A stretch of 59,703 nt of DNA, the filler included. It is 7 parts of 7 records of this genome, joined end to end, with 100 filler letters (N's around TTAATTAATTAA, not from the genome) between each part and the next. Parts side by side here need not be neighbours in the genome. Positions count along the whole stretch, not along the records: positions 10,304 to 26,391 come from SRR2962707_4663; 6 more parts are not named here. The stretch is one strand, 5' to 3'. The notes beneath the pieces are model-generated. The model saw only the letters and a program-made list of their open reading frames with translations. It was not told the origin of the DNA and ran no database searches. Made by a program: the position numbers and the translations under genes. Positions 10,304 through 26,391 of the stretch are shown here, one piece after another (within the stretch, counting starts at the first letter, position 1; every line of letters starts with the position of its first letter).

Positions 10304-10304
10304 G

Positions 10305-10721
10305 GAACACTTCCAGTGGGTTATCGCCCTCACCCGCGTTGTCTCCGCCGTGTTCCGCAAAGGCGGCGACGTAACCTTCCTGGTGGAAGAACTGCGCAGC
10401 GTGTACGACCCCAACGGCGGCTACTTCAAGAAAGGCGGCGTATTCATGCCCTCACTTGTCGCCGAAATCGGCGCCGTGATCGAGAAGCACCTCAAGGCCA
10501 TCGGCCTGATTGAAAGCGAGGAAATGAGCGAAGTCACCAAACGCATCCTCGCCGAAAAACGCGCCGAATTCGAAGCCAGCCACACCACGGCCACGAACGA
10601 CGACAAAGCCGGCGACTACCCACCCAACGCCACCATGTGCGGCAAGTGCAGCACCAAGGCGGTGATTGTGATGGATGGGTGCGCGACTTGCCTGTCTTGT
10701 GGCGATAGTAAGTGCGGTTGA
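10305..10721 (+). CDS. nrdJb: Class II (B12-dependent) ribonucleotide reductase C-terminal part (NrdJb-like), 5'-truncated
   Basis: EHFQWVIALTRVVSAVFRKGGDVTFLVEELRSVYDP.GGYFK and C-terminal C..C...MDGC.TC..CG.SKCG. Confidence 0.8.
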   Translation, partial: EHFQWVIALTRVVSAVFRKGGDVTFLVEELRSVYDPNGGYFKKGGVFMPSLVAEIGAVIEKHLKAIGLIESEEMSEVTKRILAEKRAEFEASHTTATNDDKAGDYPPNATMCGKCSTKAVIVMDGCATCLSCGDSKCG

Positions 10722-10747
10722 GGTGATTGACTGCGATGTGTGATGAG

Positions 10748-10781
10748 AAGGCCTGGAGTGTGAAAGCTTCGGGCCTTTTTT
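10748..10781 (+). terminator. Rho-independent terminator after nrdJb
   Basis: AAGGCCTGGAG-loop-CTTCGGGCCTT followed by TTTT. Confidence 0.7.
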
Positions 10782-10889
10782 GTTTTCGCTCGGATGTAAT
10801 CGCCTGACCGCTTCGTTATTACGTGGCGATATTACGACAGAGCTAGGCATCCGACTCGCAACATCTTGAAATATTGGCGGCTTTTAGGC

Positions 10890-10984
10890 GTGCGTTCTAT
10901 ATTTTTGCGGAATAACGACGCGCAGTAATGCCGAAGTCACGTTTTGGAATATTGAAGCGTTCTATCAAGTACGCAGTTAGGTAT
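10890..10984 (+). other. Putative integron attI site (crossover G/TT at 10976/10977)
   Basis: GTTAGGTAT (10976-10984) is the exact reverse complement of ATACCTAAC (12379-12387) ending the first cassette; no attC hairpin upstream; direct repeat GCGTTCTAT at 10892 and 10957. Confidence 0.65.
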
Positions 10985-11033
10985 AGGCGCTGATCGAAAA
11001 ATATCTTTATTTTTCAATAACAAGGAGAACGAA

Positions 11034-11975
11034 ATGCCAAATGTTGTAAGTATGATTAATTGGAAGGGTGGCGTGGGGAAAACATCACTTACGCTACATC
11101 TCGCGTCAGGTTTAGCTACACGGCATAGTAAGCGCGTTCTCCTGATTGACCTGGATGCTCAGTGCAACCTATCTTTTTTAGCTGTCGGCCTCTCTCCTTA
11201 TGTTGACCACACCTATAAGCGTAACGGGCCAACATTGAAAACGATTTTTGATGCATACTTTGATCGTAGTTCTCTGAATCCAAAAGATGTGATCTTGGAG
11301 AAGCAGGTTCGTGCGCGTGCCGGAAAGATATACACCCAAGTCGGTATCATCTTGTCTCACCAAGAACTCACCTTGCTAGATATGAAGCTTGCTCGTGAAA
11401 AGAGGTCGGGGAAGGACCATAGAGAGGAAACCCGATTTGAGATAGAAAAGCTTTCTGTAATTAAAAATATAATAGACTCAGTTTCGGATGAATACGATTA
11501 TGTACTTCTAGATTGCCCACCAAACGTCAATCTGGTTACCCAAAATGCTTTTTTTGCAAGCGACTACTATGTTGTTCCGGCGATTCCAGATTTTTTATCA
11601 ACCGTTGGTATCTCTTTGATTACAAAATACATGGATCAGTTCAATAAAGATTATAGTTCGATGTGGAGTTATGCAGGGCTTCCTGGAAGTTACAACGATA
11701 CAAAGTTTGGTGGAATTATTTTCAACATGGTTGACGAGTACGGTGGTGGTCCTAAGGACGGTCATCAGCAAATCATTAACTCCACTGCGTCGCAACTTGG
11801 CAAAGGAGCAGTTTTTGATAAATATGTTACGGATGGTGATGGCATGTCAGCGGCAGCACAAGTAAATCTTCCTGTATTTGCTTTTGCTGACCTACCACGA
11901 TCCCAGCAAAACGCCCAAAAGCAAGCTACGTATCTTGAGGGCGTGGTCGATGAGTTTATCACGCGAATTATATAA
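11034..11975 (+). CDS. ParA/Soj-family ATPase (cassette 1, gene A)
   Basis: Deviant Walker A KGGVGKT, LLIDLDAQCNLS, DYVLLDCPPN; RBS AAGGAG upstream. Confidence 0.85.
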   Translation: MPNVVSMINWKGGVGKTSLTLHLASGLATRHSKRVLLIDLDAQCNLSFLAVGLSPYVDHTYKRNGPTLKTIFDAYFDRSSLNPKDVILEKQVRARAGKIYTQVGIILSHQELTLLDMKLAREKRSGKDHREETRFEIEKLSVIKNIIDSVSDEYDYVLLDCPPNVNLVTQNAFFASDYYVVPAIPDFLSTVGISLITKYMDQFNKDYSSMWSYAGLPGSYNDTKFGGIIFNMVDEYGGGPKDGHQQIINSTASQLGKGAVFDKYVTDGDGMSAAAQVNLPVFAFADLPRSQQNAQKQATYLEGVVDEFITRII

Positions 11976-11987
11976 GGTGGCTAATCT

Positions 11988-12386
11988 ATGAAGACACATG
12001 AGCTAGCCAACCAACTTGAATTGTTGGCAAAATTACTCAGAAGTATGCCAGACACTGAGTTTAGTGAAGCAAGTGGAGAGCAAGTGCAGCACTCTCTACA
12101 ACTATTTGAGAGCAAAACTACTAAGCCTTCTTCTCGTGCCAACAAATCATTGCCAAAAGGAATAGAAGAAAGCCTCTCAGGGAAATCTCCGGCTGAAATT
12201 GAAAAATTCCTTAGTTCCGAGGATGAGAACTTTTCCCTTAATAATCTCTTAGAGTTTGCGGAGCGTTTAGGTATTTCTACTTCAAAGCGGCAAAGCAAAA
12301 GTGCAGTAATAAACCTCATTACTAGGCATTTTGAGGCAAAGCAAATGCATTCGATAATTCGCAACACTAAGCCCGATGATACCTAA
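11988..12386 (+). CDS. Hypothetical 132-aa protein (cassette 1, gene B)
   Basis: Starts 12 nt after the parA stop with AAGGTGG RBS; its TAA stop lies in the attC R'' core ACCTAAC. Confidence 0.75.
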   Translation: MKTHELANQLELLAKLLRSMPDTEFSEASGEQVQHSLQLFESKTTKPSSRANKSLPKGIEESLSGKSPAEIEKFLSSEDENFSLNNLLEFAERLGISTSKRQSKSAVINLITRHFEAKQMHSIIRNTKPDDT

Positions 12387-12464
12387 CCAAAACAGGCACG
12401 GCGACGGCTACTCCACTGCGGCTGCGCCTCCATTCCGTAGCCGCGCGTGCTGTTGGCGTTAACG
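12381..12464 (+). repeat. attC site 1 (84 nt)
   Basis: R'' ACCTAAC, L'' CAGGCAC, central arms GCGACGGCTAC/GTAGCCGCGC, L' GTGCTG, R' GTTAACG. Confidence 0.9.
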
Positions 12465-12486
12465 TTTTATCTATCAGAAGGAGTTC

Positions 12487-13134
12487 GTGTTGTCTCTGAA
12501 AGGTTTGATTGAAGAAGGTGCTGTAGCGAAACGTCTACTGAAGCCCGTTTTTTCGTGGGGTAGAGGCTCCTGGTTCAAAAGGCTTTTGGTTTTAAGTCTG
12601 TTTGGTCTGATTTTTATCACTGGTTACTACCTATTACTTCAGTCACTGCTTTCAGAGGTCAGAAAGCATGATGATCAGGTGTCAAAAGAAAGGAATCGGA
12701 TTGTAGACGCAAGTCTCTACCAAGCAACGATTGGTTTTGCGGAGCTGTGTCTTAAACCGGCAACGATAGATAAAGAGAACGCCTCTTGGTATTGCGAAAA
12801 GGCTTTGCAGTTGTATAAGAACAACAACAAAGGAACGCCACCTGAATTAAGGAATGAGATTGTCGAACGTAAGGCGTACGGGGCTATGGTTGCCGACATG
12901 GAATCTCAACTTAGAGGTATCAAGCTAGATCGACTTGATCAGACGTCCCCTGCTCTTGATTGGCTTGATCAGATATTGAGCAAAACTGGTATGTTTTTAA
13001 CATTGTCCTTGGCTCTCTTCGGTATTTTGGCTTTGGTGTACGGCCTATATTTACACCGTGACAATTCGGAATCTGATGAGCCAGAAGGGGGTTCCAGTAA
13101 TTCTCAAAACACGTTAACAAGTGGGTCAAGCTGA
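12487..13134 (+). CDS. Hypothetical 2-TM membrane protein (cassette 2)
   Basis: GGAG RBS, GTG start; two hydrophobic helices (LLVLSLFGLIFITGYYLLL; MFLTLSLALFGILALVYGLYL) flank a soluble domain; ORF reads into attC2. Confidence 0.7.
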   Translation: MLSLKGLIEEGAVAKRLLKPVFSWGRGSWFKRLLVLSLFGLIFITGYYLLLQSLLSEVRKHDDQVSKERNRIVDASLYQATIGFAELCLKPATIDKENASWYCEKALQLYKNNNKGTPPELRNEIVERKAYGAMVADMESQLRGIKLDRLDQTSPALDWLDQILSKTGMFLTLSLALFGILALVYGLYLHRDNSESDEPEGGSSNSQNTLTSGSS

Positions 13135-13189
13135 CCGGGGTAAGTCCAACAATGTGCTTCGCACGTTGCCCCTTCGCAAAGCGTTAGGC
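13112..13189 (+). repeat. attC site 2, hybrid/degenerate
   Basis: R'' ACGTTAAC complements GTTAACGT at 12458; R' GTTAGGC; the left arm (GGGTCAAG) and right arm (CCCCTTCGCA) do not pair. Confidence 0.7.
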
Positions 13190-13200
13190 ATGAGGGAGTT

Positions 13201-13692
13201 ATGGATAATTCTGACTACATAGCACTTGGATCGGCTGTAATTGCTTTGGCGGCTTTTGGAGTCGCCATATGGCAGGGACATATAAGCCGACGGCACAATA
13301 TTTTGTCAGTTAAGCCACGCTTTCATATTGATAAGAGCTATATCGAAGGCCTTCACTATCGGCTGGAGAGTCAGGGGCTAGGTCCTGGAGTAGTGAGAGA
13401 ATTTTCCATTCTTGTGAATGAGCAAGAAATTACCGACCCTACAGAAGATCCATGGCCCGACATATTCAAAGCTCTAGGGGTAACCGGGATCAATTATGAT
13501 TTTCACATCCCGGCGGTTGGATCAACCCACGCACCCAACACCTCAAGGCAGCTGCTAAGCGTTACCTTTGCCAATATTTCAACTGACCCCAAAGTGATTG
13601 AGACGATTGATCAAGCAATAAACTTTAGGATTAAATTCAAATCACTGTATGAGAATGAGATGTTCTCTTACAAAGGGGGGGAGGATGCCTAA
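13201..13692 (+). CDS. Hypothetical protein with N-terminal TM helix (cassette 3)
   Basis: GAGGGAG RBS; IALGSAVIALAAFGVAIW helix; stop lies within R'' GCCTAAC. Confidence 0.75.
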   Translation: MDNSDYIALGSAVIALAAFGVAIWQGHISRRHNILSVKPRFHIDKSYIEGLHYRLESQGLGPGVVREFSILVNEQEITDPTEDPWPDIFKALGVTGINYDFHIPAVGSTHAPNTSRQLLSVTFANISTDPKVIETIDQAINFRIKFKSLYENEMFSYKGGEDA

Positions 13693-13771
13693 CCATCGCA
13701 GGCACAGCGACGGCTTCTCCATTGCAGCTTCGCCTCCCCTCCATTCCAAAGCCGCGCATGCTGCAGGCGTT
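13687..13771 (+). repeat. attC site 3 (same family as attC1), interrupted at the R' GTT by a MITE; original R' resumes at 13940 (GTTAGGC)
   Basis: ATGCCTAAC complements GTTAGGCAT at 13183; CAGGCACAGCGACGGCT...AGCCGCGCATGCTG arms. Confidence 0.9.
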
Positions 13772-13939
13772 GAGGCTGTAGAAAATGTCCCGAGGTATTC
13801 TGGGGTGGCGCTCATACGTGAAATTTGAAGGATTTTTCGGAGCAAAATATGCCTCAGATTTTATGAAAAGGCGCTATTTTTAGTGCGAAATTTAAACAAC
13901 TCGAGGCTTCGAAATAACTCTGGGGTTTTCTACAGCCTC
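13772..13939. mobile_element. 168-bp non-autonomous inverted-repeat element (MITE), possibly IS1182/IS5-type ends
   Basis: Perfect 14-bp TIR GAGGCTGTAGAAAA / TTTTCTACAGCCTC, flanked by GTT direct repeats (13769-13771, 13940-13942); no transposase. Confidence 0.85.
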
Positions 13940-13955
13940 GTTAGGCGAGAATCGA

Positions 13956-14450
13956 ATGAGCATACTAGCCACACATGCACAGGATTTCCTGAATGCCTAC
14001 GAGATCTTAAGGGAGAGCAACGACTCGTTCGTTAAACAGAACATACCTGATGCAGATGAACGGTGTATCGGAAAAACTTTTGGTACTCGTCCTGCAATGG
14101 GTGTCGATATCGTTTGCTTGGCATTTTCGGTCGAATTGCATTTGAAGGAACTGCATCGGGTGTCTTATGGCAAGATCCCTCGAGGACACAAGATCATTGA
14201 GCTTTTCAAGGCTTTGTCGGGAGCAGAACAGGAAGGAGTCGTTTCTCACCATTCCATAGCACGATACGGTTGGGATTGCGCACAATTGAAATGTGAGCTA
14301 CTTGCCATCAGCGACAGTTTCGAAAAGTGGAGATACGCCTACGAGAGCACAGCCCTCCGGTACAACATTTATTTCGCGAAGGCTCTAATAGAGGCTCTGC
14401 AATTCGTAGCAGCAAGAAAAGGAGGCGTGCATGAGGCAAGGCGCACCTAG
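13956..14450 (+). CDS. HEPN-like domain protein (cassette 4)
   Basis: AFSVELHLKEL...PRGHKIIELF...FEKWRY matches the E..LK / H.l..L / RY pattern of helical HEPN domains. Confidence 0.6.
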   Translation: MSILATHAQDFLNAYEILRESNDSFVKQNIPDADERCIGKTFGTRPAMGVDIVCLAFSVELHLKELHRVSYGKIPRGHKIIELFKALSGAEQEGVVSHHSIARYGWDCAQLKCELLAISDSFEKWRYAYESTALRYNIYFAKALIEALQFVAARKGGVHEARRT

Positions 14451-14528
14451 CAAGCGCAGACATCGCGACGGCTTTTTCATTGCGGCTTCGCCTTCATTTC
14501 AAAGCCGCGCATGCTGCGGTCGTTATAT
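14445..14528 (+). repeat. attC site 4 (attC1 family) with mutated R'' core (ACCTAGC)
   Basis: CAGACATCGCGACGGCTTT...AAAGCCGCGCATGCTG arms; R' GTTATAT; AAC core changed to AGC. Confidence 0.85.
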
Positions 14529-14544
14529 TTTACAGGGAGGTTGA

Positions 14545-15105
14545 ATGGACACCCAGCAGTTACTTGAGGCTGCGCAGACAATCGACATTCTTCGATCAAT
14601 GTTCGCCGATGATAAAAACGAATGGTTGCCGGTCATTGCAGCAATTGGGGGTGCATTCGTAGGCGGTATCTCGACCTTCGTCCCTAGCTATCTTCTGGAA
14701 AAGAGGAAGTTAAAGCAGGAGGCGCGCTCCGTAGAAACCGCCCTTGTTTCCGAAGTATCAGCCTTGCTCGAGGTTATTGAGCATCGAAGGTACGTCTACG
14801 GATTGGAGGAGTCGGTTCACTATCTCAAGCAGAATCCTGGTAAGAAAAAGGTTTTTGCGACAAAAATACCTGAGCACTACTCACGTATTTATCAAGAGCA
14901 CATCTCCAAGATTGGTCTGCTTCACCCCGACCTGTCTGCAAAAATCATCCGGTTTCATCAACTGATAGATTCGGGAGTCCAAGACATCTCTACAGGAGGC
15001 TTTATCGCAGAAACTGGTGGTGGCATTGAAGCTTTCGAAGAGTTACTCGAAATATTCTATTCGGCAGTGAAGATCGGCCGAGAGATTGTCGGAACAGAAA
15101 TATAA
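14545..15105 (+). CDS. Hypothetical protein with one TM helix (cassette 5)
   Basis: GGGAGG RBS; WLPVIAAIGGAFVGGISTFVP helix; stop lies in R'' AAATATAAC, complementary to GTTATATTT at 14522. Confidence 0.75.
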   Translation: MDTQQLLEAAQTIDILRSMFADDKNEWLPVIAAIGGAFVGGISTFVPSYLLEKRKLKQEARSVETALVSEVSALLEVIEHRRYVYGLEESVHYLKQNPGKKKVFATKIPEHYSRIYQEHISKIGLLHPDLSAKIIRFHQLIDSGVQDISTGGFIAETGGGIEAFEELLEIFYSAVKIGREIVGTEI

Positions 15106-15140
15106 CCAGTCGCTGTAGTACGCGGTGCACTTACCCCAGT
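15098..15140 (+). repeat. Truncated attC site 5 (left arm only)
   Basis: ATATAACCAGTCGCTGTAG left arm, then GCACTTACCCCAGT; no matching L'/R'. Confidence 0.6.
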
Positions 15141-15157
15141 GAGAGAGGCTGCCGTTG

Positions 15158-15721
15158 ATGGACGAAGAGGAATCCCTAAACAGAGCAATTCACGAAGATG
15201 TGAAGCTCTACCAATACAACCCCAACTGGCCAGCAATGTTCCAGGATGAGCGGGACCGCCTCCTTCATTTGTTTCCGGGTGAGTTTCTGGCGATCGAACA
15301 TATCGGCAGCACCGCAGTACCCGGCCTATCGGCCAAGCCGATCATCGATATCCTGGCGGGGGTAGATTCGATGTCACGGGCCGATGAGTTAATGGAACCG
15401 TTGTGCCAGTCAAAATACGCTACCTCAATGGATTTCAATGCCTCGTTAGTGGATCGGCGTTGGCTTATGCGATGGGCCGAGGGGCGCAGGACACATCACC
15501 TGCATCTTATGGTGTTCGGTAGTCAGGAGTGGGATCGGCGCCTGGCCTTTCGGAACATACTTCGTGCCAATACGGAACTGGCACAACGGTATGAGCAAAA
15601 TAAGCGGATGTGGGTGGCGGAATTCCGTTCGGATAGAGAGGCCTATACTGCGGCTAAAGCAGATTTTATACGGGAGGCATTGAACCACTGCAACCCAGCT
15701 TCAGGACACAAGATCAGATGA
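15158..15721 (+). CDS. GrpB-family protein (nucleotidyltransferase-like fold)
   Basis: YNPNWP..F..E, IEHIGSTAVPGLSAKPIIDI, RTHHLH, LAFR..LR, Y...K, REAYTAAK..FI. Confidence 0.85.
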   Translation: MDEEESLNRAIHEDVKLYQYNPNWPAMFQDERDRLLHLFPGEFLAIEHIGSTAVPGLSAKPIIDILAGVDSMSRADELMEPLCQSKYATSMDFNASLVDRRWLMRWAEGRRTHHLHLMVFGSQEWDRRLAFRNILRANTELAQRYEQNKRMWVAEFRSDREAYTAAKADFIREALNHCNPASGHKIR

Positions 15722-16071
15722 GCGAATTCGTCGATAACCTCAATGATGTATTTTGCCAGTTCGGCCCGGTTTCCGTTCGGCGTATGTTCGGTGGCTATGG
15801 TGTGTACCACGATGGCGTGATGTTTGGCCTTGTTGCGGATGATGTTCTGTATCTGAAGGTCGATGGGGAATCGATGGGGCGGTTTACAGAGCTGGATTTG
15901 GAGCCGTTCGAATACGAGAAAAATGGCGCTAAGATTAAGATGTCTTACTACATGGCACCGGAGAGCATTTTCGAGGATTCTGAAGAGGCAAAAGAATGGG
16001 CAGAGCTGGCATTCAATGCGGCGCTCCGGGCCAGGAAACCAGCAGCAAGAACCAAGGCAAACAAGAAATGA
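15718..16071 (+). CDS. TfoX/Sxy N-terminal domain protein
   Basis: FGPVSVRRMFGGYGVY..GVMFGLVADDVLYLKVD...MSYY. Confidence 0.85.
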   Translation: MSEFVDNLNDVFCQFGPVSVRRMFGGYGVYHDGVMFGLVADDVLYLKVDGESMGRFTELDLEPFEYEKNGAKIKMSYYMAPESIFEDSEEAKEWAELAFNAALRARKPAARTKANKK

Positions 16072-16151
16072 CCGCCTACGTAATCGTCCATGGACTTACC
16101 CCGGTACAGTAGGCGCTCCTAGCCTTTGATCGGAGCATAAGAGGAATTTTC

Positions 16152-16892
16152 ATGAGAGTAGGCTTGCTGATCATCGTCGCATTCTGGTGCCTTCCAGTTT
16201 CTTCCCAAACGCTCGAAATTATGGGGTCGGACGAGGGTTTTCTGCCGTTTTATTACGGTGACAACCTTAACAAGGGCATTCTGGTTGAGGTGATCAATGA
16301 GTTCAGCCTGGAGGCCGGTATTACAGCCGGTTTTCGCCCGATGCCGCGCAAGCGCCAGGCCTGGGCCCTGGAAAAAGGACAAGCCAACGCGGTTTTTGCC
16401 AACCCGTTGTGGATGCCGCTACCAAGCCGGATGCACGCCGTCGGACCGGTGTTAACCTGGCGAGATCGTCTGTTCGCACAACCTGGCCGACAACCGGCCT
16501 CCTTCGATGATCTTGATGGCAGCATCTGTCTGCGAAAATGGTTTGTCTACAGTGATCAACTTGAGCGGCGGATTGGTACCAACCTGGCCCGCCATGACTC
16601 TTATAATGCCCAACAGATGCTGGGCATGTTTCTGAACAAACGCTGCGATTACGCCGTCATGAACGAAATGGAGTTCCGGTTTCTGGCAAAGTTGGTGGAA
16701 GTCGATCCGAATTTTTACAGCACGGAACTGATCGACGCCGAATGGCCGGTCTATCTTGGTATCCTCAAAACCGAGGCGGCTCTGATTGAAGCGGCGGAAG
16801 CTTTTTTCGCTACCCGCACGGTTGATGCGGAAGCCATGCTACCCAAACTGCCGCCGCCGGACCGGCACATCTCGATTCAGCCGGACAAGTAA
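16152..16892 (+). CDS. Periplasmic substrate-binding protein (family 3-like), orphan
   Basis: Signal peptide; PF....GILVEVI, PRKR....LE.G, MFL.KRCDY. Confidence 0.6.
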   Translation: MRVGLLIIVAFWCLPVSSQTLEIMGSDEGFLPFYYGDNLNKGILVEVINEFSLEAGITAGFRPMPRKRQAWALEKGQANAVFANPLWMPLPSRMHAVGPVLTWRDRLFAQPGRQPASFDDLDGSICLRKWFVYSDQLERRIGTNLARHDSYNAQQMLGMFLNKRCDYAVMNEMEFRFLAKLVEVDPNFYSTELIDAEWPVYLGILKTEAALIEAAEAFFATRTVDAEAMLPKLPPPDRHISIQPDK

Positions 16893-16906
16893 GGCAACTG
16901 ATTACT

Positions 16907-18010
16907 ATGACCGCTACCCTCACCATGGATCATTTGCGCCGCTACGCCATCTCGCGCAGTCTCTTCAAGCCGACCACTTTGGCACGTGCGATCAATAAAC
17001 TGGGTTTTGTCCAGCTCGACCCAATACGAGCGCCGGCACGGGCGCAGGATTTGACGCTCCGCCATCGTGTTATCGACTACCAGGCGGGTGACCTGGAGGC
17101 TCGCTACCCGCGCCTGGCGGTCGAGGAAGATTTCTTTATCAACTACGGGGTTCTGCCCCGCACCACGCAGCGCCTTATGCACCCGCGCACGGCGCGCACC
17201 GAGTGGCCACGCTCACGCTGGGAACAGGCGCAGGCGGTGCAGGAATTTGTGCAAAGCCGTGGTGTCGTTCACCCGCGCGAGGTGGACTCAGCCTTCGAGC
17301 ATGGCACCACCAAGAATTGGTTCGGCGGTAATAGCCGTGCCAGTACGCAGCTCCTGGACGGCATGCATTATCGTGGGCTGCTGCGTGTGGCGAAGCGCGA
17401 AGGCGGGGTACGCCTGTATGCGCCGCCGCTCGCTGATGAGCTCGACGCGGTGAACCCGGATACCACTCTGGACGCATTGGTCGACGTCGCAGTCGCAAAG
17501 TATGCCCCGCTGCCTGCGGCTACGCTCAGCCGCCTGGTAACGAGCGTGAGTTCTTCAGCGGTCCCGCAGTGGCGCGAGCGTCGTCGTGAAGCACTCGCGC
17601 GTGCAAAGGCTCGCCTGCCCCAGGCGACAGTTGATGGCTGTCGCTGGTTTTGGCCCATCGGCGAGAATCCTGGCAGTCGCCGCTTTGCGAGTGACAATGT
17701 GCTGGATGACCGCCTGCGCCTACTGGCGCCCTTCGATCCTTTAGTTTGGGACCGCGATCGCTTTGAGCGTTTCTGGGGCTGGGCCTACCGTTTTGAGGCC
17801 TACACTCCGGCACCAAAGCGGGTGCGTGGTTACTATGCACTACCTATGCTGTGGCGCGGTCATGTCATAGGCTGGGCTAATGCCGCCGTACGTAATGGGC
17901 AACTGGAGCTAGAGCCAGGGTACGTGCGCGGACATGCCCCAGACGACACCGCGTTCAAGCCAGCGTTGCAGGACGAGCGGGTACGCCTCGAGCGCTTTCT
18001 TTCGCTGTGA
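16907..18010 (+). CDS. YcaQ/AlkZ-family (HTH_42) DNA crosslink-repair glycosylase
   Basis: LGFVQLDPI (QxD), LLAPFDPLVWDR.R...WG..YRFEAYTP..KR..GYYALP. Confidence 0.85.
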   Translation: MTATLTMDHLRRYAISRSLFKPTTLARAINKLGFVQLDPIRAPARAQDLTLRHRVIDYQAGDLEARYPRLAVEEDFFINYGVLPRTTQRLMHPRTARTEWPRSRWEQAQAVQEFVQSRGVVHPREVDSAFEHGTTKNWFGGNSRASTQLLDGMHYRGLLRVAKREGGVRLYAPPLADELDAVNPDTTLDALVDVAVAKYAPLPAATLSRLVTSVSSSAVPQWRERRREALARAKARLPQATVDGCRWFWPIGENPGSRRFASDNVLDDRLRLLAPFDPLVWDRDRFERFWGWAYRFEAYTPAPKRVRGYYALPMLWRGHVIGWANAAVRNGQLELEPGYVRGHAPDDTAFKPALQDERVRLERFLSL

Positions 18011-18080
18011 GGCTCGGTGTGCGTGCGTAAAATGAGAGCAGTGTACTTGAAGTGACACCCTCCACCAGGGAGAAGCCCGG

Positions 18081-18623
18081 ATGGGTCTGAAAGAACATTT
18101 CCAATTATTGGCCGCTTACAATCAGTGGATGAACGCAAAGGTCTACGAAGCGGCCGGTCGCCTCTCCGCCTCGGAGTTAGCCAAGGACCGTGGGGCCTTC
18201 TTCGGCTCCATTCTGGGAACGCTCAATCACATCGTTGTGGCGGACACCGTGTGGCTCAAACGGTTTGTGACCCATCCATCCTGCGTGGACACGTTTCAGA
18301 CGGTCGCTGAGCTCGACAATCCTGCCAGCCTGGATCAGATCCTCTTTGACGATCTCGGGCGTTTAAAAGAACACCGGATCTGGCTGGATCGCCAGATTAT
18401 CGACTGGATATCCCATCCCTCCGAAGGCGACCTGGATGTTGTTCTCAGTTATCACAACATGAAAGGTGTTTCCGCCAACAAGCGGTATTCGAGCCTGGTT
18501 CTCCATTTCTTTAACCATCAAACCCACCACCGCGGGCAAGTTTCAACGTTGCTGTCGCAGGCAGGCGTGGATGTTGGCGTTACCGACCTGTTGGAACGGA
18601 TTCCGGATGAAACGCAGGTATAA
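18081..18623 (+). CDS. DinB-family protein
   Basis: YNQWMN, GAFFGSILGTLNHI..AD..WL, HFFNHQTHHRGQ..LLSQAG...G.TDL. Confidence 0.9.
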   Translation: MGLKEHFQLLAAYNQWMNAKVYEAAGRLSASELAKDRGAFFGSILGTLNHIVVADTVWLKRFVTHPSCVDTFQTVAELDNPASLDQILFDDLGRLKEHRIWLDRQIIDWISHPSEGDLDVVLSYHNMKGVSANKRYSSLVLHFFNHQTHHRGQVSTLLSQAGVDVGVTDLLERIPDETQV

Positions 18624-18701
18624 CACGACAAACAACCTCATCCGGTCCTTTTTACCTACGGGTTGGGAGGTAACGATGAACTCTGGTAGCAGGTCTTTTG
18701 A

Positions 18702-19154
18702 ATGAATATGGATATCTCGATCCAGCAAGGAACAGCTGAACACCTCTCGGGCATACACCACCTTGTTCTGGAATGGGGGTATTCCTCCAACGAATCTCAG
18801 ACTGGGGCATGGCTAGAGGCGTTGTTGGAATCCCCGAGCCATCAGATATGGGTGGCTATTTCAGATGCCGCAGTGGTTGGGTGGGCGGTCGCCGAGAGGC
18901 GTATTTCTATCCGTGAGCTGTTTACCTCTGAGATCACTGGGCTGGTCGTGAGCGCCAATGTTCGACGGGCGGGTGTTGGGCGCTTGCTCGTTCAGGCTGT
19001 TGAAGACTGGTCCCGCGCCAAAGGGCTCTCACGGGTTGTGGTACGATCCAATGTGAGTCGTTCGGAGTCCCATGGGTTTTACCCGTCTATCGGTTTCGAG
19101 CATGCAAAGACGACTCATGTTTATGTGAAAGATCTGGATGGGTCCACGCTATGA
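18702..19154 (+). CDS. GNAT-family N-acetyltransferase
   Basis: EITGLVV...RRAGVGRLLV...E.W....G...V.V.SN..R...H.FY..IGF. Confidence 0.85.
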   Translation: MNMDISIQQGTAEHLSGIHHLVLEWGYSSNESQTGAWLEALLESPSHQIWVAISDAAVVGWAVAERRISIRELFTSEITGLVVSANVRRAGVGRLLVQAVEDWSRAKGLSRVVVRSNVSRSESHGFYPSIGFEHAKTTHVYVKDLDGSTL

Positions 19155-19447
19155 AGTGCATTTTCACCATACTTTTGGTCATAGGCCTTATTGGTTGTGC
19201 TTCGCAGCAATCAGCCGTCGACCTGAAGAACTCGGATTCTGCCATCATTGGTGAAAAGCCTGAAGGTTATCCAAAAACCTTTATCAAGCGCCTGCCTGAT
19301 TTGCCCGGCTTTTGTATTGAAGTGACAGAAGACTGGAGAAAACATCCGTATCAGGGTGAGACGATCTGGCTGAAGGAAAAGACGATAAAGAGCCTGAACT
19401 GCCCTGGGGAACCCTTGCCGGGCTCTACCAATGTATTGAAGAGATAA
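19151..19447 (+). CDS. Putative lipoprotein
   Basis: Lipobox LIGC after a hydrophobic N-terminus; ATGA overlap with the GNAT stop. Confidence 0.6.
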   Translation: MKCIFTILLVIGLIGCASQQSAVDLKNSDSAIIGEKPEGYPKTFIKRLPDLPGFCIEVTEDWRKHPYQGETIWLKEKTIKSLNCPGEPLPGSTNVLKR

Positions 19448-19450
19448 AGA

Positions 19451-19681
19451 ATGATTGACCGCAAATATCACAGAATCGTATTTTCGTTTTTCATGTCACT
19501 GTTGATGTCCTGCATCATGTCGCTGGTGATCAGCGTTTTTAACGTGGGGTGGACCAGCAATATCGTTTCAATCTGGCTGAATGCCTGGCTTTTTGCGTTT
19601 GTCGTCGCCTTTCCCACCATCATGCTGGTGTCGCCCGTGGTTCACAAGCTGGTCAGCCTGGCGTTGAAGGACGAGGCTTGA
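19451..19681 (+). CDS. DUF2798-like small membrane protein
   Basis: FSFFMSLLMSCIMS...WL.AW..AF.VAFP. Confidence 0.75.
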   Translation: MIDRKYHRIVFSFFMSLLMSCIMSLVISVFNVGWTSNIVSIWLNAWLFAFVVAFPTIMLVSPVVHKLVSLALKDEA

Positions 19682-19690
19682 TTTCTATTT

Positions 19691-20866
19691 CTATGCCTCT
19701 GCTCGGAGCAACCTCGGCCGCTTGCGCTTCATCTGCCAGCGCCAGAGCCATTCCAGGGGCCCTTGGGTGAACAGCCGCAGCCAGACGGCGCTGAAGATCA
19801 TCTGGGCGATGAAAAATACCGTTGAATACAGCATCAGCGCTGCGAGCGAGAGTGAGGCGAAGCGGTCGCCCCACATGCCATAGAACACGCAGATGCAGAC
19901 GGCGGACTGCAGAATGTAGTTGGTGAGCGCCATACGACCGGTTGGCGCAAGGGCTGAGCGAACCACACCGGTCAAGCGCCCCCTGCCCCGCCACCAGAGC
20001 AGCAGAACGGCACCATAGCCCATGGCAAGCAACGGTGGAGCGCCTACACCGCCCAGCAAACTTACAACCCTGTGGGCCAGGCTCTCTTCACCCAGTTTGA
20101 CCTCGGCCATGGCCAGGGCGGTGCCGACCACCAGGCCAACCAGTGCCACCACAATCAATAGCCGGACATGGCCCGAATTGCGCTCCGCCAGGTGCAGGCG
20201 GGCAGCAGCGGCGCCAAATAGAAACATCGCCATCACCCGTAGGGGGCGCAGGTGTTCAATCCGATCCAGAAACACGCTGACGCTGAGGTAGGCATTGGCT
20301 TCGACCACCTCCAGGTAACTCCCCCCACTCAGGGCTGGCACATTGTCCTGCAGCAGGCGCAGTGAAAGGCCGCTTCCGAGATCCGCCAACCCCAACTGGG
20401 GCTCGAACCAGAGTGCTACACCCGTGACTACCAGCAGGGCAACGCCGCAGGCAGCCAGCGTTGGAGCGCGAACGTTCAGGAAGGCCCCCAGGAAAAGCCC
20501 CATTACCCCGTACAGCATGAGGATGTCCCACGGGGATAGGAACAGAGAATGGGCGGTGCCAATAACCAGCAGCCCCAGCATTCGCCGCAAGTGATAGCGG
20601 ACGGGGCTTTGCTGTACCCGCTGGGCCAGCATCATGAAGCTGTAACCAAACAGCAGGGAGAACAGGCTGTAGAACTTGGCCCGCACCAGGATGTCCAGCC
20701 AGGTGGCAATGGGTTCGTCCCATTCCGACCAGGTTAACGCTTGCCTTGTGTCAGCGGAGACGAACCCCCAGCCCGAGAACACCTGAATATTAATCAGCAG
20801 GATACCGAAGATGGCAAAGCCCCGAAGGGCATCCAGACCGTCAATACGTTCGCCTTTGCTCGCCAT
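19691..20866 (-). CDS. DUF418 (YeiB-like) membrane protein
   Basis: RIDGLDALRGFAIFGILLINI, KFYSLFSLLFG, GRMALTNYILQS, GPLEWLWR; start trimmed to ATG 20866. Confidence 0.85.
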   Translation of the reverse strand: MASKGERIDGLDALRGFAIFGILLINIQVFSGWGFVSADTRQALTWSEWDEPIATWLDILVRAKFYSLFSLLFGYSFMMLAQRVQQSPVRYHLRRMLGLLVIGTAHSLFLSPWDILMLYGVMGLFLGAFLNVRAPTLAACGVALLVVTGVALWFEPQLGLADLGSGLSLRLLQDNVPALSGGSYLEVVEANAYLSVSVFLDRIEHLRPLRVMAMFLFGAAAARLHLAERNSGHVRLLIVVALVGLVVGTALAMAEVKLGEESLAHRVVSLLGGVGAPPLLAMGYGAVLLLWWRGRGRLTGVVRSALAPTGRMALTNYILQSAVCICVFYGMWGDRFASLSLAALMLYSTVFFIAQMIFSAVWLRLFTQGPLEWLWRWQMKRKRPRLLRAEA

Positions 20867-21059
20867 TTCGGATACTCCCTGCGCCGCAGTTGGGTTCTTT
20901 CCGTATAAACGCAACCTTCGCATATCAGGTTTAGCGGTAATAGATGAAGATCGCTTGAAGGCTACCGGATCGTAACTGGCGGTTCGTTGACAGCCGTCGG
21001 ACTGTGCACGCAGCATTGGAACCCTTAGCATTTGTAACCCGGCGCAAACAGGGAGCTCC

Positions 21060-22121
21060 ATGAATCTGCAACCTATCTTCTCGCAGGCCGGTGCGGCACT
21101 GTTGGCCCTCTTCGTTCTCAGCCTGGGTTCTGTGGCCCAGGCCGATGACTGGTCCCCGACTCTGCAGAAAGAAATCGAACGCATTGACCGAACCTTCTCT
21201 GGCGATCTCGGGGTCTACATCCGTCATCTGGGTACGGGCCAGAAGGTTTCTCATAACATCGACCAGGACTGGTATCTGGCCTCTACCGTCAAAATTCCGC
21301 TAGCCATCGTATTGATGCAACGTGCCGAGAACGAAGGCCTGGATCTGGAGCAGAAACTCACTCTCCGGGCTGCAGATTATGTGGATGGCACTGGAGATCT
21401 GCTCTGGGTGGACCCCGGTGCCCGTTACAGCCTGGAAGAGCTCAACAGACGCTCTATTGTCGACAGTGACAGCACAGCAACCGACATGTTGATACGTTTT
21501 CTTGGCGAGAAATCATTCGGAGAGGATGTGGCACGGCTGGTTCCCGAAGGGCTGGGGCCGATTACCACGATCCTCCAGGTGCGCTACGACGCATACAGGG
21601 AAGTTCACCCCAGTGTTTCGGTGCTGACCAATCGTGATTTCATCGATCTGAAAACCGCCCGCACCTACCAGGCGCGGTACGATATGTTGCTGGAAAAACT
21701 CAACATTACTGCAAGAGAGGCGGATGCCAAAGGCGTGCGTGAAGCCTTTGAGCGCTATTACCAGCGGGGAATCAACTCAGGCAGTCTCGAAGCCTTCGGG
21801 GCATTGCTGGAGCAACTGGTCAGGGGCGAACTGTTGAATGACGCCCACACGGACCAATTGCTGGGGTATCTATCCGAAATAACCACGGGTGATCACCGGA
21901 TTGCAGGGGGCTTGCCAGCGGGCACCCATTTCGCCCACAAAACCGGCACCCAGGTGGCCCGCTCCTGCGATATCGGCCTGCTCAACCCCCAGGCACCCGA
22001 TGAAGCGGTTATCGTCGCGGTTTGCGCACGCGATTATGCAGCCCTGTCGGAAGCGGAAAGAGCCTATCAGGCGATTGGCAATGCGCTGCATGAGTCGGGG
22101 CTAACGAGGACCGTAGATTAA
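21060..22121 (+). CDS. Secreted serine hydrolase, class A beta-lactamase-like
   Basis: Signal peptide; ASTVK (SxxK), SDS at the SDN position, AHKTGT. Confidence 0.75.
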   Translation: MNLQPIFSQAGAALLALFVLSLGSVAQADDWSPTLQKEIERIDRTFSGDLGVYIRHLGTGQKVSHNIDQDWYLASTVKIPLAIVLMQRAENEGLDLEQKLTLRAADYVDGTGDLLWVDPGARYSLEELNRRSIVDSDSTATDMLIRFLGEKSFGEDVARLVPEGLGPITTILQVRYDAYREVHPSVSVLTNRDFIDLKTARTYQARYDMLLEKLNITAREADAKGVREAFERYYQRGINSGSLEAFGALLEQLVRGELLNDAHTDQLLGYLSEITTGDHRIAGGLPAGTHFAHKTGTQVARSCDIGLLNPQAPDEAVIVAVCARDYAALSEAERAYQAIGNALHESGLTRTVD

Positions 22122-22199
22122 GGCGCGTCACCCAATTCCAAACTCACCCAATCATGCTAGGCTGATCTCAAACAAATCGAACCAGCCAAGGCATAACCA

Positions 22200-22946
22200 A
22201 TGAGAAAGACCATTCTGATTACCGGTGCCAGCACCGGCCTCGGCGAAGGCATGGCCCGCGAATGGGCCGCCAAGGGCTGCAACCTTGCGCTCTGCGCGCG
22301 GCGGGCGGATAAGCTGGAGGCACTGCAGCGGGAATTGCAGCAAACCTACCCCGATATTCGGGTGTTGGTCCGGGGCCTGAATGTGTGCGACTACGATCAA
22401 GTGTTCGAGGTGTTTCGGGGATTCCGGGATGAGTTGGGCAGTCTTGACCGTGTGGTTGTGAATGCGGGTATTGGCAGTTCCCAGCCGATTGGGCGTGGGC
22501 ACTTTGCCGCCAACCGGCAGACGGCCGAAACCAACTTTATCGCCGCCATCGCCCAAAGCGAGGCAGCCATGGAGATTTTCCGGGAGCAGAACAGCGGGCA
22601 TCTGGTGCTGATGTCGTCGGTCAGCGGTGTTCGCGGCTTCCGTGGGCCTATCAACGTCTACGCCGCCACCAAGGCCGCCGTGGCGTCGCTCGCCGAGGGC
22701 CTGCAACTGGATACGAAGGGCAAGCCCATCAACGTCAGCAACATCATGCCGGGCTACATCCTCACCGACATCAACCGAGAGACAAAGAATGCGCCCTTCC
22801 GGGTGGACCTTGAAACCGGCGTGAAGGCACTGGTGAAAGCAATTGATTCCGAGGTACGCCGCGCCTATGTGCCCTGGTGGCCCTGGACGCCGCTCAGCTA
22901 TGTGTTGAAGGCCCTGCCCTTTGGGTTGTTTGCACGGGCGATGTGA
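22200..22946 (+). CDS. SDR-family oxidoreductase
   Basis: TGASTGLG, VNAG, YAATK. Confidence 0.9.
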   Translation: MRKTILITGASTGLGEGMAREWAAKGCNLALCARRADKLEALQRELQQTYPDIRVLVRGLNVCDYDQVFEVFRGFRDELGSLDRVVVNAGIGSSQPIGRGHFAANRQTAETNFIAAIAQSEAAMEIFREQNSGHLVLMSSVSGVRGFRGPINVYAATKAAVASLAEGLQLDTKGKPINVSNIMPGYILTDINRETKNAPFRVDLETGVKALVKAIDSEVRRAYVPWWPWTPLSYVLKALPFGLFARAM

Positions 22947-22954
22947 CTGGCCAC

Positions 22955-25522
22955 TCACCCGTCCCGCAACAACACCGCCGGATTCAGCCGCATGGCCCTC
23001 AACGTAGGCAGCAGCCCTCCCAGCAATGCCAGTGAACTGACGGCGCCAGCCACCAACGCGCCAATCCACCACAGGTCCCCCGCTGGCAGTTTTAGCGCCA
23101 GGTCCGCAACCGGCAGAGCAATCAGCGCCCCGAGCCCCGTTGCAAACACGGTTGCCAGTAGCGTCAGCAAACCGGTTTCCAGCAACATGGCATTCCGGAT
23201 GGCCTGGTGCCTGGCCCCGAGGCAATGTAGCAAGTTGGCTTCGTAGAGTTGTCGCCGGCGGCTGACGCTGACCACGCTCGACAGCACCAGCAAGCTAGCC
23301 AGAAGACTGACCGAGGCAACCGCCGCAAGGCCAGCGGCGGCCTTATTGAGCAGGCCGCCGGCTGTTTCAAGCCAGTCTGCGGTGCGCAGGGTGATAACGT
23401 TGGGGATGTTGCCGGCCAGCCATTGCTGGGAGTCTTTGGCGGCCGCGTCGCCCTGGTAGACGGCGCCGACGTAAAGGCTGATTAAGCCATCCAGGGCGCC
23501 TTGCTGCAGTACGCCTTCAAACCAGAACCGCGTCTGCAGGCCTTTCTGGCGGTATATCGCCCGAATTTCGGCAACGATCGGCTGGTCCTGCGCCGTGAAC
23601 TCAATCCGGTCGCCCACCGTCAGCCCCAGTTCGTTGGCTTCGCGGTCTTCCATGGCCATGTACACAGGCTCGCCTTCCGGTGCAGGCGAGCTCCACCAGT
23701 TGCCCTGCACCAGCTCCAGACCTTCCGGATTTCCCGCCAGATAGGTGAGCTTGTATTCGTCCCCCATGGCCTCACGCCTGGCTCGCGGGTTATCGGCCAG
23801 TGCCTCCGCGATAGGCTCAGCGTTAATGGCGGCCATTCGGGCGCGAACCAGTGGCAGGAGTTCCGTCCTGCTGGAAGGATCCAGGGATTCCAGGCCGGAC
23901 TTGAGTGGCTCCCTCTGGTCCGGGAACACTTCGTACAGGATCAGCGCGGGGGATTCCGCCGGGATGGTGGTTTCCAGAGCTCGCAGGAGCGTGGTGACCA
24001 TCAGGGTGCAGGCCACTACCAGAGTCAAGGCGGTACCCAGCGACAACAAGGTTGCCCGCAGGGGCGAATCCGGCCGATGAAGGTTGGCCAGTGCCAGGCG
24101 CCGGGCGAATTTGCGGTCGGCGAAGCCACTGTTTTCCAGCGCTTTTGCGCCCCGCCGCAGCCCCTTGATAATGCCTTCCAGCAAGCCCCAGAGCACACAT
24201 ACCGCCAGCAGAAAAAGGAACCCCAATTGTGGCGACGGTAACCAGAACAGCGTCGCGCCGATATAGATGGTCAGCAGAATGTAGCTCGCGATCCGCCAGG
24301 TTCGGGGTTCGTTACGGGCGGCCTGCACCTGCCCACGGAAAAGTCCGGCTGGTGATGCCGCGAGCGCCCTGGCCAGGGCCGGCAGCGCGAAGACGTAGGC
24401 CGTGAGCACCGCAAACAACCAGCTCAGCAACAAAGGGATAAACCACAAAGACAGCCAGCCCCCTACCCCGTCCGGCCCCGACAATGCATAAGCGTCGCCC
24501 GCCATGGATATCGCCACGGCGGAAAGCCCCAATCCGATTCCGCCACCGATCAGGCCCGCCAGACTGCCCAGCAGGCCGACCTGCAGCAGGTAGATGGCCA
24601 CCAATGGTTTGCGGCGCAGGCCCAGCGTCTGCAGGGTGGCGATGGTGCCCAGCTTTTCGTCCAGGTAGGCGTGGATGCTGTTTGCCACCCCAAGGCCGCC
24701 AATGAACAGCGTCGTGAAGGCGATCAGGATAAGCGCTGTGGCAATCTGATCCAGCCGTTCAGCGATGCGTTCGCTACGCTCCGCGAAGGTAGTGGTGTCC
24801 CAGTTCGGCTCCGGGAACGCCTGTTCGAAGTCCGCCAGCCATACATCCAGGTTCTGGTCGGTCTTCACCTTGTACTCGTAGTCCACTCGGCTACCGGGCC
24901 GGATCAGTTCCGTTGCCTCCACCGCCTGCTCGGAAATCATGATGGGCAGGCCGCGCCAGTTTGCGTTCAGGCGTCGGTCCGGCTGTTTCTGGATCAGACC
25001 GCTGATGCGGAACGTGGCCGCGCCGATCTCGATCTGGTCTCCGATGGTCTGGCCCAGGCGTTCAGCCAACAACGGATCGATCACGGCACCCCAAACACCG
25101 TCTTTGCGTGCGGTTAGCTCAGCACGCGACTGGTCCGGCGTGAGCTGCAGCTCGCCGTAAAGCGGATAGGCCGCATCCGGAATCAGTATCTCGGCGCGGA
25201 AGAAGCCGTCACCGCTCTCGCCACTGACAATGGTGTCGAACTCCCGAACCAGCGAGAGCGTCCCGGTGCGCCCCACCCATTCGATTACGTCACTCGGCAA
25301 CGGCTCGCTGGCATCGAGCTCCACATCGCCGCCCAACAACATGCGCGTGTCCGCCAGCAGGCTCTGCTCGATCACCCGGTACAGGCTGGCCGTGGCCGCC
25401 ACCAGGGTCACGCCGAGGATGAGGCACGCCAGAAACACTTTAAGCGCTGAGAGCCGTGATCGCAGATCGGTGATCGCGAATTTGAACATCCAGAGCGGCT
25501 TTGTGGAGGCGTTACGCTTCAT
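22955..25522 (-). CDS. ABC transporter permease, FtsX/YbbP-like
   Basis: Duplicated FtsX-type TM modules; LLGGD, YPLYG; start at ATG 25522 overlaps the ATPase 3' end. Confidence 0.85.
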   Translation of the reverse strand: MKRNASTKPLWMFKFAITDLRSRLSALKVFLACLILGVTLVAATASLYRVIEQSLLADTRMLLGGDVELDASEPLPSDVIEWVGRTGTLSLVREFDTIVSGESGDGFFRAEILIPDAAYPLYGELQLTPDQSRAELTARKDGVWGAVIDPLLAERLGQTIGDQIEIGAATFRISGLIQKQPDRRLNANWRGLPIMISEQAVEATELIRPGSRVDYEYKVKTDQNLDVWLADFEQAFPEPNWDTTTFAERSERIAERLDQIATALILIAFTTLFIGGLGVANSIHAYLDEKLGTIATLQTLGLRRKPLVAIYLLQVGLLGSLAGLIGGGIGLGLSAVAISMAGDAYALSGPDGVGGWLSLWFIPLLLSWLFAVLTAYVFALPALARALAASPAGLFRGQVQAARNEPRTWRIASYILLTIYIGATLFWLPSPQLGFLFLLAVCVLWGLLEGIIKGLRRGAKALENSGFADRKFARRLALANLHRPDSPLRATLLSLGTALTLVVACTLMVTTLLRALETTIPAESPALILYEVFPDQREPLKSGLESLDPSSRTELLPLVRARMAAINAEPIAEALADNPRARREAMGDEYKLTYLAGNPEGLELVQGNWWSSPAPEGEPVYMAMEDREANELGLTVGDRIEFTAQDQPIVAEIRAIYRQKGLQTRFWFEGVLQQGALDGLISLYVGAVYQGDAAAKDSQQWLAGNIPNVITLRTADWLETAGGLLNKAAAGLAAVASVSLLASLLVLSSVVSVSRRRQLYEANLLHCLGARHQAIRNAMLLETGLLTLLATVFATGLGALIALPVADLALKLPAGDLWWIGALVAGAVSSLALLGGLLPTLRAMRLNPAVLLRDG

Positions 25523-26183
25523 ACAGGCGCCCACCATCCATCCGGACCCGATGCTGACAGCGCTCCGCGACACGTTCGTCGTGGGTGACCAGCACCAGGG
25601 TGGATTTGCTTTCCTTGTGGAGGTCGAACAGCAGGGAGAGCACTTTTTCGCCGGTGGCATGGTCCAGGTTGCCGGTGGGCTCATCCCCCAGCAGCAGGCT
25701 GGGCTGGTGCACCAGTGCCCGTGCGATTGCGACACGCTGTTGCTCGCCCCCGGAAAGCTGCCCCGGGTAGTGCTGCAATCGGTGGCTCAGGCCAACCGCG
25801 TCAAGCATGGCCAGGGCCTGCTCACGGGCGTTCCCCTGCCCGGCGATTTCCAACGGCAGGCTGACGTTGCCCAGCGCTGTCAGCCCCGGCAGCAAATGGA
25901 AGGATTGGAAAATGATGCCAAGGTGCTCACTGCGCCAGTCGGCCAGCGAATTGGCATCCATGTCGCCCAGGCGCTGGCTGCCCACCAGGATCTCTCCGCT
26001 GGTCGGGCGCTGGAGGCCGGAAAGCAACAGGAGCAGAGACGTTTTCCCGCTTCCGGAGGGACCGGTAATCGCCAGTGTGTCGCCGGGCGGAATCGTGAGC
26101 GAGGCGTTGTTGAGCACCGCGACCGTGCCGGACTCGGTTGGGTAGCTAAGGTTAATGTCGCTTATCTGAACGCTGGTGGACAC
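25512..26183 (-). CDS. ABC transporter ATP-binding protein (YbbA-like)
   Basis: [36 protein letters not shown]. Confidence 0.9.
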
Positions 26184-26391
26184 GAAAGCACCTTTCTTTT
26201 TTAATAACAGAATGTAGCTTGCACGGCGATTATGACGATAGCTGGCAGCCGCGCAGAAGTTGGAAAGTGATTCAAAGTCATTGAGAGTACGAGCAGTTTT
26301 CCAGACTAGCGCACTCTAAAAAAAGGGCCAGACGAAGTTTTACACGACTTTTGCAAAGATGGGAGAACGCTATGGCAGGTGGTTGGTCCCG

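Follow-up and report, generated by a model that had tools for sequence, protein, structure and literature searches.

An integrase-less cassette array with its own attI behind nrdJb in Marinobacter: a candidate satellite integron platform

Clusters of attC sites lacking an integron integrase (CALINs) were named for this lack (Cury et al. 2016, PMC4889954). The accessible text of that study describes attI as unknown for most integrons, and hence unsearchable, and treats CALINs as cassette reservoirs from which cassettes are perhaps excised and reinserted at the attI of an integron. The parts of the literature available to us report CALINs as common in Shewanella, and the action of the integrase IntI in trans on CALIN cassettes figures as an assumption in what is accessible of PMC9668308. 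Here, we analyzed a cassette array directly behind nrdJb, the gene for the small part of the B12-dependent ribonucleotide reductase, in a DNA stretch of 59,703 nucleotides (the window). The window consists of seven mutually unrelated contigs joined by N spacers, and the array lies on the contig at positions 10304-26391. The array fits the definition of a CALIN and is not a complete integron, having neither an adjacent intI gene nor a LexA-controlled integrase promoter. Like CALINs described so far, it includes two attC sites or more (three at 63-81 bits under a covariance model), and intI is not nearby but usually elsewhere in the genome. However, CALINs are defined without attI, whereas the Marinobacter array has an attI of its own and appears to gain cassettes. 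We estimate a probability of roughly two-thirds that the array is a satellite integron platform, in which a stand-alone attI behind nrdJb would be served in trans by a distant IntI.

Other described systems resemble the array in part. It shares with sedentary chromosomal integrons a homologous attI, the same attC families, a polarity of cassette age, and related cassettes, but it has no intI, no LexA box, and an inverted left arm; furthermore, Marinobacter has several platforms per chromosome, which derive from different IntI clades. Xanthomonas CALINs (bioRxiv 10.1101/2025.06.18.660453) are likewise integrase-less arrays at a few recurring positions across species, but the accessible text gives no attI and portrays their activity as being lost. 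Mobile integrons can have Delta-attI-type cassettes (PMC12901181), in which additional attI copies are able to recombine although they are not next to intI; as far as the available part of that paper goes, these are truncated attI sites that replace attC in class 1/class 2 arrays, whereas in Marinobacter whole attI regions stand at the head of separate chromosomal arrays. Insertion at attG and the single attC sites lacking integron integrase (SALINs) of Loot et al. (bioRxiv 10.1101/2022.09.11.507474) also involve IntI acting away from its own gene, but attG is presented in the accessible text as a 3-base consensus unlike attI, whereas the Marinobacter leader, i.e., the segment between the nrdJ terminator and the first cassette, is a 200-nt homologue of attI. 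No description of attI-headed satellites in Marinobacter was found in the literature searched, which covered few subscription papers and no supplements. The features that we consider new are the presence of several attI types at a single locus, the form of attI that stands alone, and the pairing of attI with non-cognate IntI.

The leader and the array in the window

Hidden Markov models (HMMs) of attI were trained solely on intI-adjacent regions, one for each IntI clade. The clade-A model gave a single match in the whole window, at 10818-10974 (E = 4e-4), which makes the segment that the initial annotation had called attI-like a true attI homologue. The last ~60 nt before the core aligned with clade-A attI, and the similarity stopped at GTT(A); by this homology, the site has the attI with a GTT crossover that belongs to a complete integron. 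The terminator-like hairpin ends at 10780, and the stretch between 10782 and the G at 10976 measures 194 nt, in agreement with the annotated ~195 nt between the nrdJb terminator and the first GTT. The same annotation had seen no integrase at the site, and we found no IntI-like piece on the contig, which starts inside nrdJb. Neither Rfam nor a plasmid search matched the leader.

The leader differs in form from sites beside intI. An inverted left arm (at least 12 of 16 motif positions) was present in 24 of 27 nrdJ leaders of type A versus 0 of 29 intI-adjacent clade-A sites. The latter carry a LexA box and a direct motif ahead of the core repeats, whereas a LexA box, searched for with a motif from the accessible text of PMC8946536, was found in none of the 27 leaders. 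Leader motifs were kept while the spacers drifted. Compared with shuffles, the inverted repeat of the window leader itself was marginal (p = 0.03), and its support comes from conservation and not from this statistic. An IHF consensus, with at most one mismatch, occurred in the middle of 13 of the 27 leaders and in ~7% of shuffles, which we take as a lead only.

The array behind the leader is a real integron gene-cassette array of five cassettes (Table 1). All eight core words of the initial annotation were at the positions given there; apart from GTTAACGT, which recurs in the window at 28744, on another contig, none of them is repeated. The proposed rule that the opening core of each cassette is the reverse complement of its closing core held for the four pairs listed, but not for every cassette, as cassette 4 opens with GTTAGGCG (13940) and closes with ACCTAGC (14445; AAC changed to AGC). 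In attC ends of intI-adjacent arrays, a random opening and closing pair agrees in the 4 nt after GTT with a probability of 0.033, so that four matching pairs would arise by chance at ~1e-6. We gathered 134 attC candidates from arrays beside intact intI, 31 of which were used for the covariance model. It matched attC1, attC3, and attC4, the sites assigned initially to one 84-nt family, which shows covariation. These three also have the bottom-strand hairpin with R''/R' and L''/L' pairing (R'' is mutated in attC4), whereas attC2 and attC5 have no such pairing; attC2 scored 16.5 bits (E = 0.83), and attC5 gave no match in the search of the window. The earlier proposal that IntI integrated the cassettes is supported.

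The C terminus of NrdJb has 100% amino acid identity with that of Marinobacter salarius R9SW1, and the nrdJb DNA is 97% identical to that of the relative G171 and 96-97% identical to L001 and L002. Judging from these identities, the host is a Marinobacter close to M. salarius. Statements at the genome level below refer to genomes of relatives and not to that of the window strain.

The nrdJ locus and other integrase-less attI sites in the genus

We surveyed the best 80 nrdJ loci among 380 relatives found, and leaders were classified by BLAST clusters, with six loci added by eye and four stubs included. An attI-type leader was present in 47 of the 80 loci (30 of type A, 12 of type B, and 5 of type C); in one locus, L059, a type-A stub is joined to a type-D attI, the type of a fourth IntI clade. 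Each of the leader types A, B, C, and D was matched by the attI model of one IntI clade, and the lowest E values were 1e-51 for type C and 5e-83 for type D. The final bases before the core are nearly alike in types A, C, D, and E. Among loci with at least 1.5 kb of downstream sequence, attC sites on the same strand followed in 37 of 39 loci with a leader but in only 1 of 31 without (overall, 39/47 versus 1/33). No attC was found upstream in any of the 80 loci.

The IntI HMM detected neither intI nor a remnant in the 80 nrdJ loci, and in relatives there was none within up to 10 kb on either side. In 14 further nrdJ regions (one a duplicate), it matched in L228 only; these matches were rejected as an IntI remnant, being recombinases without the IntI-specific segment inserted after the core. 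L228 and L177 have the same element start directly after the attI core, and the L228 copy encodes a tyrosine recombinase without that segment. The comparison of the nrdJb downstream locus across relatives that the initial annotation had proposed showed that intI is absent there and that cassette content varies. Its suggestion that intI had been deleted cleanly at this site found no direct support: no intI or remnant lies between terminator and core at any nrdJ locus examined, the leader has no LexA box and an inverted arm unlike the 29 intI-adjacent clade-A sites, and the site is old, genus-wide, and occupied by several attI types. On a tree built from 78 nrdJ loci, we counted at least 21 changes of the leader label, compared with 41.6 in shuffles, and 12 species form a clade that keeps subtype A2; the nrdJ site is therefore old and inherited, with occasional swaps. 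An inversion that separated intI from attI was also considered, because the distance from nrdJ to an intI downstream of it is often 70-150 kb and the arrays converge, and rejected. This spacing is synteny, because G045 has it without a leader and the interval in G002 (L212-L215) has no attC.

In L209 (G171), the leader behind nrdJ is reduced to its left stub, after which comes an unrelated island of several genes. L324 (G191) has a second leader copy 20 kb downstream of nrdJ with half of an nrdJ-like terminator, and the second copy in L323 (G103) lies in a 10-kb tandem duplication.

An intI gene above the TIGR02249 cut-off was present in 122 of 191 genomes of the genus. The 113 IntI loci analyzed, the best-scoring part of this list, form six clades, each monophyletic on a FastTree phylogeny (clade D with weak support) and each with its own attI region; identity between clades is 41-67%. 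The type-A leader model, with only 15 candidates scored per genome, matched 108 of 151 genomes, intI-adjacent sites included, and an order-wide search matched 4 of 151 genomes, all within the genus set. Most of the 40 regions fetched around matches away from listed nrdJ and intI positions have attC downstream, one being itself an nrdJ locus (L327). In 13 regions, the satellite site has the inverted form and lies behind an acyl-CoA synthetase gene; further sites follow OsmC-YcaO, pckA, a Usp gene, and other genes. L291, L293, L302, and L326 retain a LexA box and intI fragments, and intI decay beside attI was also seen at L344; loss of intI is therefore a plausible distant origin of the nrdJ site.

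Four genomes (G001, G002, G084, and G171) have one intI above the cut-off each and several attC clusters. Among 20 more regions from these genomes, five of which were chosen since the type-A model had already matched there, 14 had an attI match and 6 had none. There are thus 4-6 intI-less attI-like sites per chromosome, some of them partial, of types A, B, and D, and the IntI of G001, G002, and G171 is of clade C only. The intI genes themselves come and go, as different IntI clades share 3' neighbors and the clade-E loci (L189-L207) are each at a different place. A conserved 19-nt end motif lies behind most of the latter, with differing flanks on its far side, and the same motif heads some intI-less type-A sites (the loci concerned also include L298, L334, L336, L343, and L345); it is possibly the end of a mobile integron platform.

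Cassette turnover and the source of the integrase

Comparison of 43 intact sites, after five stub or unclear loci had been dropped, yielded 25 pairs with leaders at least 80% identical. The first cassettes were unrelated in all 25 (42-57% identity, with a background of 51%), including the pair L056/L057 with 100% identical leaders. By the established mechanism of integrons, swapping cassette 1 exactly at G/TT requires an integrase acting on attI. A similar pattern was observed in one public sequencing run (X8), compared as assembled contigs only. There, a contig is ~94% identical to nrdJb and the leader as far as 10980 and differs from that point on, whereas a second contig of equal depth matches 13784-16120 (the transposable element behind attC3, cassettes 4 and 5, and backbone) at ~97%; shared distal and different proximal cassettes would be the polarity that a working attI should produce. 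L360 is 89% identical as far as 10979 and continues with another cassette. Cassettes thus apparently kept changing at integrase-less sites, and the leader-identical pairs, X8, and L360 provide comparative support for the suggestion in the initial annotation that the site is served in trans. Cassettes of satellite and intI arrays are related between different genomes. Metagenome scans gave 0 matches and later 13, 12 of them unrelated; runs X9 and X11 contributed scattered low-depth pieces, and a contig of X6 that ends at 10974, just before the core, was set aside as uninterpretable because of adapter-like ends. In G002, the type-D site L337:4830 and the type-B site L340:4760 open with the same 36 nt, followed in L340 by an IS3-type end. 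Within-genome copying of cassettes was considered for a 99.9% stretch shared in G171, and rejected, the stretch being an IS5.

Under the satellite reading, a complete attI without intI or LexA box, and apparently without a promoter, would be a stand-alone unit that Marinobacter species have inherited and exchanged. The IntI would come from another place in the chromosome, from an intI gene whose promoter region contains a LexA box, and would insert circular cassettes at G/TT; new cassettes would push older ones outward, and the outward attC sites would be worn down by IS3 and IS1182 elements and by point mutations. The resident IntI would presumably perform this reaction also when it belongs to another clade, the leader repeats would bind IntI and the middle of the leader IHF, and the sites may derive from integrons that lost intI long ago.

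Several observations weigh against this reading. Both the nrdJ leader and an intact IntI were typed in 32 genomes; only non-cognate IntI was present in 18 of these, and non-cognate pairs of attI and IntI are generally inefficient according to the accessible parts of two studies (PMC8946536; PMC4792948). Twelve leader-bearing genomes without intact intI were found, many of them drafts. Whole arrays can be imported by homologous recombination: the leader in the window is of subtype A2, whereas A1 or a stub of it is present in the nearest relatives. The search for promoters found none above chance in the region (6 matches versus 6.2 expected; one of 9/12 in the leader), the two X8 contigs are not joined, and the one long stretch found to be nearly identical in two arrays of the same genome is the IS5 and not a cassette.

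A broader form of the satellite reading is possible, although we hold it only tentatively: one SOS-controlled IntI would serve the 4-6 integrase-less attI platforms dispersed along a chromosome, including sites of other clades, and the inverted-arm leader would be an attI dedicated to standing alone, with a spread and a selection independent of intI.

It is unlikely that the leader worked only with its own intI, either adjacent or in a donor, and that the arrays are now frozen and differ by import of leader-plus-array blocks through homologous recombination. Such a history would agree with the decay of intI beside attI at other loci, the swap of leader subtypes at the terminator between close relatives, the number of label changes on the nrdJ tree, the many stubs (G171, L016, L033, and L036), the three damaged attC sites in the window, and the IntI-attI specificity reported in the accessible literature. 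However, we found no donor that has intI at nrdJ and no case of the inverted form beside intI, so that somewhere a site without intI must have taken up cassettes. The different first cassettes behind identical leaders, the distal sharing in X8, and the conservation of motifs amid drifting spacers also speak against it.

Action in trans by cognate enzymes only, with sites idle until the cognate intI arrives by replacement of the main locus or on a mobile platform, appears quite improbable as well. The cognate preference in the two studies cited above and the turnover of intI indicated by the shared 3' neighbors and the scattered clade-E loci are in its favor, as is an excess of cognate pairs (14 of 32, with 8.9 expected; p = 0.0085, not corrected for kinship). 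The count excludes 12 genomes that lack an intact intI, two that have stubs, and one for which intI was not retrieved, and loci were paired with genomes by coordinates. In contrast, sites with intact cores and fresh attC occur in genomes whose enzymes are only of clades B, C, D, or E, for instance G002, G004, and G059, and the shared 36-nt opening of the type-D and type-B sites in G002 is a further, weak point against this explanation. Either non-cognate IntIs cross-react, or the sites wait for a cognate enzyme; cross-reaction, if real, may be helped by the near-identical core ends of types A, C, D, and E. Finally, cassettes that landed at a secondary attG site beside a leader that is an unrelated regulatory element are very improbable: insertion at attG is a demonstrated route to CALINs in the accessible text of Loot et al. 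(bioRxiv 10.1101/2022.09.11.507474) and the window match is modest, but four leader types each match the attI of one IntI clade, Rfam gave no match, and leaderless loci have no array.

Surroundings of the array and implications

Table 1. Coordinates of nrdJb, the leader, and the array in the window
Feature	Position	Strand	Remarks
nrdJb 3' part (B12-dependent ribonucleotide reductase, small part)	10304..10721	+	cut by contig start; TSCPD E = 2e-4; NF006417 C terminus
Intrinsic terminator of nrdJb (terminator-like hairpin)	10745..10780	+	leader types change immediately after it
Stand-alone attI, type A, inverted-left-arm form, subtype A2	10782..10979	+	crossover G/TT at 10976/10977
Inverted copy of pre-core repeat motif, likely IntI binding site	10805..10823	-	16/16 motif match; invariant columns
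Direct repeats and left box of attI	10907..10975	+	homologous to clade-A intI-adjacent attI
Cassette 1	10977..12458	+	two open reading frames (ORFs), closed by attC1
Cassette 1, ParA-family ATPase	11034-11975	+	AAA_31 E = 3e-35
Cassette 1, second protein, 132 aa, function unassigned	11988-12386	+	64 unnamed or hypothetical homologues
attC1, intact, 84-nt family	12381..12464	+	80.6 bits; fold
Cassette 2	12459..13183	+	215-aa ORF 12487-13134; no Pfam match
attC2, damaged	13112..13189	+	left arm of 72-nt attC family, IS3-type end stub 13137-13148, non-matching right arm
Cassette 3	13184..13769	+	163-aa ORF 13201-13692; homologues in other Marinobacter arrays
attC3, 84-nt family	13687..13771	+	72.7 bits; near-identical attC adjoins intI in L171
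168-bp miniature inverted-repeat transposable element (MITE), 14-bp terminal inverted repeats	13772..13939		at attC3 crossover, between attC3 and cassette 4, GTT duplicated
Cassette 4	13940..14522	+	164-aa ORF 13956-14450; core pair not in initial annotation
attC4, 84-nt family	14445..14528	+	63.1 bits; inverse core mutated AAC to AGC
Cassette 5	14523..15125	+	186-aa ORF 14545-15105; attC5 left arm only, 15098-15125
IS3-type end stub cutting attC5	15126..15137	+	stub motif

The MITE behind attC3 and the IS3 scars in attC2 and attC5 had not been annotated initially. The MITE shares its terminal inverted repeats with autonomous elements of 1833-1850 bp that encode DUF772/DDE_Tnp_1_6 transposases, a domain pair that we take to represent the IS1182 family. 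In the loci examined, which are enriched for arrays, 52 of 53 distinct element ends adjoin GTT or its complement, and the MITE was matched in 20 of 191 genomes. MITEs of 165-168 bp or IS1182-type elements with GTT duplicated also occupy attC crossovers at L015:12058, L051:15622, and L075:12016. Full elements with ends like the stubs in attC2 and attC5 encode rve transposases and presumably belong to IS3; a further stub of this type lies at 16091.

The chromosomal backbone restarts at ~15158, with 95.5% identity to G171 from there. The segment at 15155-19681 contains small cassette-like genes without attC (GrpB, TfoX_N, AlkZ-like, DinB, GNAT, and DUF2798), possibly domesticated old cassettes. 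A gene of the Beta-lactamase2 family (PF13354) at 21060-22121 belongs to the backbone, outside the cassettes, and PADLOC returned two short P-loop matches and nothing more. The contigs at 26492-59703 seem to be non-Marinobacter, two of them eukaryote-like by our impression of their ORF pattern, and the window would thus be a mixed set.

The prevailing view of CALINs, which are common, is that of leftovers or passive cassette stores, in part for want of a way to search for attI. In the present analysis, attI was modeled for each IntI clade and was found to head many of the integrase-less arrays checked. These marine bacteria are culturable, and their six IntI clades, the attI type of each clade, and the naturally occurring non-cognate pairs provide a set for testing whether new cassettes are captured by CALINs and what determines the specificity between IntI and attI. 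If one IntI does serve several platforms, many CALINs would be live capture sites and not relics, and IntI-attI specificity would be loose within the genus.

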